DNA of 64,000 nt from contig JAUSDJ010000017.1 of NCBI GenBank assembly GCA_030650795.1, positions 388,077-452,076 on the forward strand. The letters are read 5' to 3'. Position 1 is the stretch's first letter; each line of letters begins with the position of its first letter. Under the pieces are notes generated by a model. That model was not told the origin of the DNA. It worked only from the letters and a program-made list of their open reading frames with translations, and made no database searches. This stretch comes from Actinomycetota bacterium. GTDB lineage: Bacteria; Actinomycetota; Actinomycetes; S36-B12. The position numbers and the translations under genes are program-made. Shown piece after piece: positions 36,500 to 37,792 of this stretch.

Positions 36500-37792
36500 T
36501 TGAAGCGTTACCGCGTCGTCGTAGTTCTCGCGGGGGTCACCATCGGGGCTCTTGCCTTGGCGCTCTCGAGCTCCGCCTCCTCGGTGGCATCGACGCCCGA
36601 TCGGCTCGTGGCCAAGCCACGCGCGGCGGCCGTCGATCCGATCGTCCGCGAGTGGTCGTCGAAGTGGGAGCACGGCGTTGTCACCATCAACGTGACGGGG
36701 TCCGGTGGCAATTACGTCGGCAACGTCGTCCAGGACAATTCAGGCGCTAGTTGTAACAGTCCGGCAGGGAAATTGATTTGGACCATCCGCGGAAGTGCCC
36801 CGAACTACACGGGCACGGCCTCGGCACATCCGGGCTGCGCGAATCCGGCTGTGGCGGCCTTCTTCACCGTATCGACATACAACGGCGGACTATGGCTTGA
36901 TGTGCGCGTCGGAACCAACAGCGAGAGCTTCGAAGGTGGGCCCGCGCCTGTCGCTACCGCGCCCGACCCGACTGCGCCCGACACCACACCGCCGACCGTA
37001 AGGCTTGACGCGGAATCAGGCATTATCCGGATCGGGGAGAAGTTCAGGGTGCGGTGGTCGGTCACTGACAACAGCAAGAAGGCGAAGGTGACGCTCACCC
37101 TCTATTCCGGCGGCGACGTCGTGGCCACCCAGACGAGTCGCGGGCTGGTCAAGGCGACCGGCCAGGTGCGTGAAGGCACCGCTGATGCTGGGTCTCGCTA
37201 CCCGGGACCGTTCTATATCTGCGTGTCGGCCGTGGATGCCGCGGGCAACACGAGTGCGACGCCGGGGCCGAAGTGCGAGTGGCTGTCGGTCCAGGTGCCC
37301 GTGTCGAGGGTGTCCAACGGCTGCGGAGGCGCGCAGTGGGGACCGGGTGCTGAAGCCGTTCAAAACTGGCTGCTCGACACGCAGAAGTACAATAAGGAAA
37401 CGGTTAACTTCCGTGCTGCGTGCAACCAGCACGACGCTGGCTACGCCGGTGTCACGGTGGCCGACCCCTTCCTGAAGCACGTGGTGGACTTCCGGACCTG
37501 GTCACGCGAACGGGTCGACAAGAAGCTCGAAAAGGACATGCAAACTCTGTGCCACAAGTACCTGGATGGGAACGTGAGCCCCAATGCGATATCGAGTTGC
37601 ACGAAGGGCGTTTCGCAGGCGCTCCTGCCGGCGGCCGTAGTGGTGGGCGGGCCGCCAGGCGCCCTGGCCTACTACGAGGGCGTGCGGCAGTATGCCAAGG
37701 CCGCCTTTGACACGAACGTCGTGGCCCCCGGCACCCAGACAGACAACAACCCTTCGACATGGCCCCTGGGCGGCGGACGAGACAACACATAA
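36500..37792 (+). CDS. Secreted multidomain protein with C-terminal prokaryotic phospholipase A2-like domain
   Basis: Signal peptide, then an unknown N-domain, a Pro/Thr linker and an Ig-like segment. The C-terminus (NGCGG...FRAACNQHDAGYAG...RVDKKLEKDMQTLC...ISSCTKG...YYEGVRQY) matches the Streptomyces PLA2 pattern (LCS..PD...ACxRHDFGYRN...DMKRVC...AC...YYQAVK), recalled from memory. Confidence 0.65.
   Translation: MKRYRVVVVLAGVTIGALALALSSSASSVASTPDRLVAKPRAAAVDPIVREWSSKWEHGVVTINVTGSGGNYVGNVVQDNSGASCNSPAGKLIWTIRGSAPNYTGTASAHPGCANPAVAAFFTVSTYNGGLWLDVRVGTNSESFEGGPAPVATAPDPTAPDTTPPTVRLDAESGIIRIGEKFRVRWSVTDNSKKAKVTLTLYSGGDVVATQTSRGLVKATGQVREGTADAGSRYPGPFYICVSAVDAAGNTSATPGPKCEWLSVQVPVSRVSNGCGGAQWGPGAEAVQNWLLDTQKYNKETVNFRAACNQHDAGYAGVTVADPFLKHVVDFRTWSRERVDKKLEKDMQTLCHKYLDGNVSPNAISSCTKGVSQALLPAAVVVGGPPGALAYYEGVRQYAKAAFDTNVVAPGTQTDNNPSTWPLGGGRDNT

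Follow-up and report, generated by a model that had tools for sequence, protein, structure and literature searches.

What does a gene for a 430-amino-acid (aa) 'hypothetical protein' encode when the end of its product recalls a phospholipase? The question is raised by a 64,000-nucleotide (nt) stretch of DNA from an Actinomycetota bacterium (GenBank assembly GCA_030650795.1, contig JAUSDJ010000017.1, positions 388,077 to 452,076), which was analysed as a whole and is called the window here. The identical protein is listed at NCBI as 'MAG: hypothetical protein Q7L55_05885 [Actinomycetota bacterium]' (MAG, metagenome-assembled genome), and no NCBIfam entry matched it. An earlier note on this DNA had likened its C-terminal part to the secreted phospholipase A2 (PLA2) of Streptomyces violaceoruber (SvPLA2). 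Our analysis establishes, at the level of sequence profiles, that the C-terminal domain of ~135 aa is homologous to the group XIV (bacterial/fungal) secreted PLA2s. We further consider it likely that the protein is exported by the Sec pathway, is stabilised by disulfides, and carries this domain as a divergent group XIV (PF09056-type) secreted PLA2 tethered to targeting domains. By analogy with its relatives, it is probably a calcium-dependent secreted phospholipase.

The domain is marked by five sequence blocks, i.e., the NGCGG loop (residues 273–277), FRAACNQHDAGYAG (304–317), DKKLEKDMQTLC (340–351), SSCTKG (365–370), and YYEGVRQY (391–398). The catalytic helix reads C308-N-Q-H311-D312-A-G-Y315; the family motif D330-F-R-T-W-S-R336, D340 on the following helix, and Cys351 and Cys367 come after it. 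The open reading frame (ORF), all five blocks, and the linker described below were found where the earlier note had read them. In Pfam, the prokaryotic phospholipase A2 family PF09056 (Phospholip_A2_3) was the sole match of the protein (E = 8.1e-5, residues 300–354), and PF00068, PF05826, PF06951, or any other PLA2 family gave no match at E ≤ 1. The match to PF09056 that the earlier note had anticipated was thus obtained, but at 23.6 bits it stays under the gathering cut-off of 29.4. It recurred in 17 of 19 close homologues (E ≤ 0.1; best 2.5e-5), and about 14 of the 76 family members, the more distant ones, carry a precomputed PF09056 assignment. A single-sequence phmmer search of the Protein Data Bank (PDB) returned no PLA2, just a meaningless match to MFAP4 (E ~0.8), and a family profile was therefore needed. 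With the profile of 76 sequences, the four best PDB matches were 4AUP (2.9e-5), 8K1W (3.9e-3), 1FAZ (6.3e-3), and 7YGK (9.3e-3), all of them group XIII/XIV PLA2s.

Comparison of the family's C-terminal domain profile with a profile of four solved PLA2s by hhalign gave a probability of 97.6% (E = 4e-12, residues 300–399). The alignment to 1FAZ, with which the mature SvPLA2 reference sequence is identical at 122/122 positions, spans 70 columns at ~27% identity and ends at residue 399. It pairs C308, H311, D312, Y315, D340, C351, and C367 with C61, H64, D65, Y68, D85, C96, and C107 of 1FAZ, and the terminal YY..V helix also lies inside it. The claimed His-Asp motif in a CxxHDxxY context was borne out by the pairing of H311/D312 with H64/D65. 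Four of the five blocks said to match SvPLA2 fall within the alignment, but NGCGG was aligned by no method. Could short motifs have matched by chance? A Pfam score under the cut-off and the phmmer search without a PLA2 would be in keeping with this, but the explanation is effectively refuted, because the PDB profile matches (the four best all PLA2s), the hhalign result (E = 4e-12 over 70 columns), and two independent Foldseek libraries, whose only high-probability matches are PLA2s, all point to PLA2.

Foldseek searches with the full-length AlphaFold2 (AF2) model were dominated by Ig-like (immunoglobulin-like) and arrestin-like beta-sandwich matches, and this swamping made a model of the C-terminal domain on its own necessary (predicted local distance difference test, pLDDT, 90.6). 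With the latter, 4AUP was the sole PDB match of appreciable probability (0.96; E = 0.086, 25% identity over 101 columns), and the only probable matches in a viral library were three phage proteins (0.90–0.98), of which two bear the name PLA2. Structure prediction, proposed in the earlier note as a check, thus brought up PLA2s as the only probable matches, but the overlap is partial: template modelling (TM) scores are 0.33–0.55, root-mean-square deviations (rmsd) 5.2–5.7 Å, and E-values 0.03–0.09 over both libraries, with 4AUP at TM 0.33/0.45 and 5.2 Å. Judging from the model, the domain resembles PLA2s in structure only at the pair of catalytic helices and at the C-terminal helices. Relative to the solved PLA2s, the model adds a helix (278–292), beta-hairpins (294–303 and 319–330), and a low-confidence helix (373–382); the second hairpin bears the D330–R336 family motif and lies ahead of the Asp340 helix. 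The full-length model likewise predicts a mostly helical domain (278–398) and an ordered, non-helical tail (400–430), both with high confidence, and in the domain model the tail has a pLDDT of 85–92 and no regular secondary structure.

Conservation was counted over 76 homologues, whose identity to the 430-aa protein goes down to ~26%. N273, C275, G276, C308, H311, D312, A313, Y315, G317, and D340 are invariant (76/76). The invariance of H311, D312, Y315, and D340 down to such low identity is the pattern expected under purifying selection on an active site; a His-Asp dyad, with Asp85 of SvPLA2 paired with the catalytic His, has been described (PMC11525133). This pattern argues against a non-catalytic PLA2-like binding fold, i.e., a pseudo-enzyme serving as a structural or adhesive surface component. 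The fusion to Ig-like and beta-rich modules of the kind that surface proteins typically carry and the loss of the Ca2+-loop Asp would suit such a role, which we regard as very improbable all the same. Among the cysteines, C351 and C367 are kept in 75 of 76 sequences, and the sole exception (P0031) lacks both, as expected for a disulfide pair. We infer a C351–C367 disulfide as the counterpart of SvPLA2 Cys96–Cys107. Once these two are paired and C308 is aligned to C61, the invariant C275 is the only Cys of the domain left without a partner. The mapping of four cysteines onto the Streptomyces enzyme, suggested earlier, holds for C308, C351, and C367 (C61, C96, and C107), but C275 lies outside every alignment; in SvPLA2, the Ca2+ loop and the catalytic helix are linked by Cys45–Cys61.

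The family also departs from the solved enzymes. All four of the latter have a D-x-C Ca2+-loop motif (D-L/S/G-C), whereas the loop here is N273-G-C275-G-G, with Asn in 76/76 sequences where the solved enzymes have Asp. Asp43 of SvPLA2 was reportedly assigned as a Ca2+ ligand by Matoba and colleagues in 2002; our literature search for the Ca2+ ligands of SvPLA2 returned no paper giving them. An invariant Asn in place of a Ca2+-ligand Asp means that metal dependence, and possibly the chemistry, may differ. Between the loop Cys and the catalytic His, the spacing is 36 residues compared with 19 in 1FAZ, and the model fills this gap with the new helix 278–292 and a beta-hairpin; between the His and the dyad Asp, it is 29 compared with 21. 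The tail follows the consensus F-D-x-N/D...P-G-x-Q...G-G-G-R-x-N, which has no counterpart in known PLA2s; D404 is kept in 73/76 and Q413 in 72/76 sequences, and R427 and N429 wherever the tail is present. Like these two tail positions (D404 and Q413), D330, R332, W334, and R336 are invariant or near-invariant in the family and lack a counterpart in known PLA2s.

Such departures raise the alternative of an active domain that is not a strict PLA2, with another ester substrate or a Ca2+-independent mechanism. Its substrates could be lysophospholipids, glycolipids, lipoproteins, or polyester or wax-like material. The invariant Asn273 where every solved relative has Asp, the six family-specific residues, the low structural overlap, and the sub-threshold Pfam score would all fit. 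However, the catalytic helix pair is fully conserved, and to our knowledge all characterised superfamily members with both the His-Asp motif and the second Asp retained are sn-2 phospholipases; moreover, Asn side chains are common Ca2+ ligands. The very divergent TtaP of Salmonella Typhi is likewise still a PLA2 (PMC11525133). We rate a changed activity as unlikely, though worth keeping in mind. Given the invariant Asn, a Pfam score under the cut-off, and a fold that matches in part only, we would place the protein in a distinct sister clade instead of simply in PF09056.

The reading as a divergent secreted PLA2 thus has to be weighed against several observations. Besides the Asn loop, the Pfam score, the partial overlap of the folds, and the failure of phmmer to find a PLA2, the N-terminal third of the domain (266–299) aligned to nothing, the clade is without any characterised member, and the gene neighbourhood holds no functional hint. 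We nevertheless prefer this reading, under which His311 would act as general base on a water molecule, oriented by Asp340 of the neighbouring helix. Asp312 and the glycine-rich S-N-G-C-G-G loop would bind Ca2+, and the ion would polarise the sn-2 ester bond of a glycerophospholipid; the contribution of the loop would come from backbone carbonyls and/or the Asn273 side chain. A Cys275–Cys308 disulfide would tie the loop to the catalytic helix, and hydrolysis would yield a lysophospholipid and a free fatty acid. No catalytic role is likely for the Ig-like domain and the interchangeable N-terminal module (N-module) on their flexible Pro/Thr linker; acting as spacers and targeting elements, they would most likely hold or direct the enzyme to a surface, be it the envelope of the producer itself, a foreign membrane, a vesicle, or a particle.

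How is the domain presented by the rest of the protein? The full-length AF2 model, built from the 76 homologues (mean pLDDT 82.8), together with Foldseek confirmed the proposed order of signal peptide, N-terminal domain, linker, Ig-like segment, and PLA2 domain (Table 1). The N-terminus presents K/R residues, then a hydrophobic stretch (Kyte-Doolittle 15-residue mean with its maximum of 2.56 at residues 7–21), then the small-residue pattern SSSASSVAS. In the model, a low-confidence helix (4–22) is followed by a disordered stretch (23–42) that overlaps the end of the signal region. N-termini of homologues are comparably hydrophobic. The putative cleavage site would lie at about residue 26–31. 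Neither a lipobox Cys nor a twin-arginine motif is present in the N-terminus, and a hydrophobicity scan of the remaining protein revealed no further segment resembling a transmembrane helix. The signal-peptide features, the lack of another hydrophobic segment, and the even number of cysteines (85, 113, 241, 259, 275, 308, 351, and 367) suggest that the protein is secreted. In the simplest arrangement, the eight cysteines would form four disulfides, a single one within the N-module, a single one within the Ig-like domain, and two within the PLA2 domain. A promoter and terminator scan of positions 35300–38200 gave no signal exceeding that of shuffles.

Table 1. Features of the 430-aa protein gene and its secreted upstream neighbour (window coordinates)
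Feature	Residues	Position	Strand	Basis
ORF, 430 aa	1–430	36500..37792	+	TTG start; ORF listing
Shine-Dalgarno-like GGGAGG		36489..36494	+	5 nt before the TTG start; direct reading of the sequence
Putative Sec-type signal peptide, MKRYRVVVVLAGVTIGALALALSSSASSVAS	1 to ~26–31	36500..36592	+	Hydrophobicity profile, AF2 model, homologues
N-terminal beta-rich module	~44–140	36629..36919	+	AF2 strands 51–137, pLDDT 72–88
Pro/Thr/Ala-rich flexible linker	141–164	36920..36991	+	pLDDT 45–57 (142–160 flexible in the AF2 model)
Ig-like beta-sandwich domain	165–265	36992..37294	+	pLDDT 94–97 (166–265 in the AF2 model), Foldseek
Divergent group XIV-like PLA2 domain (by homology)	266–399	37295..37696	+	Pfam, profiles, hhalign, domain model
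Conserved non-helical C-terminal tail, plus stop codon	400–430	37697..37792	+	Conservation; model
Upstream 261-aa secreted protein (putative)		35606–36391	+	ORF listing

The N-module comprises seven predicted strands and Cys85/Cys113, and matched no Pfam family. A guess that it is DUF2147-like or avidin/calycin-like was dropped, as five N-module sequences (that of the 430-aa protein, those of three homologues, and that of a neighbour in the homologous locus L001) gave no such Pfam match at E ≤ 10. The motif PDPTAPDTTPP occupies residues 155–165, its final Pro (165) lying just beyond the linker. For the next domain, Foldseek with the full-length model listed Ig-like, PKD domain, carbohydrate-binding module (CBM), and complement MG/macroglobulin beta-sandwiches, the compact ones with TMt 0.64–0.70. 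Pfam matches of the segment 165–265 were faint (Big_3_3 E = 0.028, Big_3_2 0.13, DUF4625 0.079; Big_3_2 reached E = 0.0013 in one homologue), and no hidden Markov model (HMM) of a bacterial Ig family matched it above threshold. Given these beta-sandwich matches and the faint Pfam matches, the term 'Ig-like' is right at the fold level only. Cys241 and Cys259 are both kept in 63/76 homologues, and the Ig-like domains of homologues share a D-D-S-G-x-A motif.

The next question was how far this architecture extends. We found 75 homologues in a collection of 5.8 billion proteins, at least 246 clusters of the family in a representative library at 50% identity, and 87 loci in a one-genome-per-species scan, nearly all in MAGs of Actinomycetota. 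Host lineages include Nanopelagicales/Planktophila, Micrococcales-like bacteria, Gaiellales, Solirubrobacteraceae, Thermoleophilia, and Acidimicrobiia; a few loci stem from records labelled Eremiobacterota/Vulcanimicrobiota, and single ones from Acidobacteriota, Gammaproteobacteria, or Deinococcales records. Most members have a constant core of the Ig-like and PLA2-like domains (query residues ~150–430), and the parts upstream of it vary. The ORFs are between 137 and 1014 aa long, and the shortest ones are probably truncated at contig ends or by frame breaks; this divergent clade includes a few short forms (~175–212 aa), and a few members have the PLA2-like domain in an internal position. Two longer proteins of the representative library may be mentioned here: P0077 (820 aa), whose last 324 residues are 54% identical to query residues 109–430, has a longer architecture of the same family, and P0102 (4331 aa) contains 35 stretches matching the Ig-like domain (query 183–256). 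Bacterial PLA2s had been described in the earlier note as normally small and single-domain, and indeed, among 2122 relatives of the Streptomyces enzyme, the best 120 are without exception single-domain proteins, with precursors of 137–165 aa. The architecture is thus unusual for PLA2s but, contrary to the claim that it is new, not unique, as the family of at least 246 clusters is already deposited as 'hypothetical protein', with some members PF09056-tagged. A literature search on PF09056 and its Pfam name returned nothing on this clade, judging by titles and abstracts.

Genomes often encode several members. The MAG JAUSNB01 (contigs 15 and 21) has at least five paralogues (L007, L009, L011, L012, and L035; 33–50% identity to the query), and in the MAG CAWJHN01 two copies lie on the same 2.08-Mb contig. 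Within the 64-kb window, no second copy of the PLA2-like domain or the N-domain was found. Paralogues in such numbers bring up the alternative of an antagonistic toxin directed against bacteria or eukaryotes. It would attack the membranes of competing or prey cells with the N-modules as receptor-binding domains, and the paralogues would form a diversified arsenal. The swapping of N-modules on a constant Ig-like plus PLA2-like core and the modules common to adjacent secreted proteins (see below) would agree with this, and its mechanism is compatible with that of a secreted PLA2, from which it differs solely in biological role. However, no conserved immunity-like neighbour was found across 80 loci, the signal is a plain Sec signal unaccompanied by a recognised toxin-delivery domain, and the gene sits among housekeeping genes (clpX/clpP/tig region, by ORF translations). 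Taken together, a dedicated toxin appears improbable to us.

The neighbourhood itself was inspected in the window and in related loci. No operon partner or immunity gene proved to be conserved, either in six inspected loci or in an all-against-all ORF comparison of 80 loci. In the window, the gene for the 430-aa protein is located downstream of a clpX/clpP/trigger-factor (tig) cluster, as read from ORF translations, and is preceded by back-to-back tRNA-Pro (− strand) and tRNA-Gly (+ strand) genes at 33452–33655. The block 34000–38000 has a G+C content of 0.63–0.64 compared with ~0.59 elsewhere in the window and holds two short-chain-dehydrogenase-like ORFs (by translation) in addition to the genes of both secreted proteins; possibly, this block is a small acquired island. 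As to individual genes, a 458-aa ORF at 32019–33395 (− strand) reads like trigger factor and has a histidine-rich repeat end, HEGHDHEGHDHEGHDHA. In another locus (L003), a 156-aa gene with the Pfam domain TY-Chap1 (PF22551; 7277–7747, + strand) lies 47 bp downstream of homologue P0010 and was seen in none of the other inspected loci.

Do the two secreted proteins of the window share a targeting module, as had been suspected from a similar N-terminal pattern? The upstream 261-aa protein belongs to a family of its own (17 sequences) with no Pfam domain, several conserved Cys, and an invariant C-terminal motif A-E-G-x-x-G-G-C-N ... W-x-G-x-L. NCBIfam gave a faint streptavidin match (NF047623, E = 0.0057, residues 29–85). 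A loose W..G..V..G pattern can be read in both proteins, not above chance. BLASTP between the two gave E = 0.21 with matched regions that do not correspond, hhalign a probability of 5% (0.8% for the trimmed N-domains), and hmmsearch against the 17-sequence upstream family E ~0.05; an hmmsearch over all 587 ORFs of the window found the six-frame segment at the upstream gene's position (mapped by id) at E = 1.7. For this pair, the suspected shared module thus finds no statistical support.

The idea holds, however, in the homologous locus L001. There, a 234-aa secreted protein (5269–5973, + strand) with the N-module of homologue P0002 and then a long proline-rich tract (PPxP repeats) is encoded directly upstream of the P0002 gene, and it matches P0002 in BLASTP with 1.8e-10; its match to residues 44–96 of the 430-aa protein has an E-value of 1.8e-4. 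In three further loci, genes for 445–491-aa proteins lie directly downstream of family members (L015 4707–6146, L016 4790–6265, and L023 4787–6124, all + strand), and their C-terminal parts match the N-modules of members in L053, L075, and L079 with E-values down to 1e-28, which points to module exchange among neighbouring secreted proteins. The N-domain HMM of the upstream family also had weak matches at the N-termini of P0070 (7.8e-5), P0074, and P0026. From module sharing at L001, L015, L016, and L023 and these weak matches, the N-modules appear to behave as mobile cassettes among secreted proteins.

These findings allow a wider, more tentative proposal, which we consider possible rather than probable. 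The family could be an unrecognised, actinobacterium-specific class of modular extracellular lipases on a PLA2 fold, with a re-engineered metal site (the Asn loop), an added tail, swappable N-modules, and multi-paralogue sets, used to harvest lipids or phosphorus from the membranes of other cells or to attack these membranes. If this were true, the Asn loop and tail might bring altered metal dependence or substrate range, and the paralogue sets would be deployed by uncultured lineages that abound in freshwater and soil (Nanopelagicales/Planktophila, Gaiellales, and Thermoleophilia). Independently of this proposal, the database entries named 'hypothetical protein', some with a PF09056 tag, make up a sizeable, unstudied modular PLA2-like family; the present practical gain is a better annotation than 'hypothetical protein'. 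Few bacterial PLA2s of the Streptomyces type are known; they are small and have industrial uses such as lecithin modification and oil degumming. A large, unannotated clade with the catalytic core retained, a changed calcium loop, and added targeting domains would extend the range of sequences and architectures known for the fold and would supply natural variants for probing the role of the loop Asp. The concentration of the family in abundant uncultured freshwater and soil Actinomycetota may point to fatty acid or phosphate acquisition or to interaction with neighbours. The protein is a reasonable target for enzymology and holds no surprise at the level of mechanism.

Among known systems, the closest for comparison is SvPLA2 (1FAZ/1LWB/1KP4; group XIV; PF09056), like the 430-aa protein of actinobacterial origin and secreted or equipped with a secretion signal. 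Both have the C-x2-H-D-x-G-Y helix (C61-A-R-H64-D65-F-G-Y68 in SvPLA2), the Asp of the following helix (D85 = D340), the terminal Y-Y-x-x-V helix, and the cysteines C61/C96/C107 = C308/C351/C367, with the fourth Cys in the upstream loop. SvPLA2 is a single domain of 122 aa, whereas here a domain of ~135 aa and a 31-aa tail end a three-domain protein; the Ca2+ loop is D43-L-C45 there and N273-G-C275-G-G here, and the N-terminal helices of 1FAZ (1–40) lack an aligned counterpart. The fungal PLA2 TbSP1 of Tuber borchii (4AUP; 'group XIII') was best in both the PDB profile search and the PDB Foldseek search, but it is single-domain with a D-G-C loop, and the folds agree at just TM 0.33/0.45 (rmsd 5.2 Å). 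Two phage 'Phospholipase A2 domain' proteins, A0A2I7R0J7 (Vibrio phage) and A0A8S5LC67 (both from BFVD), resemble the domain with a Foldseek probability of 0.96–0.98 and TMt 0.49–0.55; they differ as single-domain proteins of 92–134 aa with 18–22% identity (E 0.03–0.08). Classical animal and plant secreted PLA2s (PF00068; loop Y-G-x-Y-C-G-x-G-G) share, by reading, a glycine-rich C-G-x-G-type loop before the C-x-x-H-D helix, but have a C-C-x-x-H-D-x-C motif and five to eight disulfides in place of A-C-N-Q-H-D-A-G and four Cys (two predicted disulfides); for plant secreted PLA2s, the Ca2+-loop motif is given as YGKYCGxxxxGC (PMC6635587). The last comparison concerns TtaP from the typhoid toxin islet of Salmonella Typhi, which is <20% identical to SvPLA2 and TbSP1, lacks all four Cys, and is an active PLA2 dependent on the dyad Asp (PMC11525133). 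By its published description, it is, like the domain studied here, a distant relative detectable by profiles only that keeps the His and Asp; it is small and without any of the four Cys, whereas the 430-aa protein has all four and is multi-domain. That TtaP is active though very divergent indicates that remote relatives of the fold can remain phospholipases (PMC11525133).

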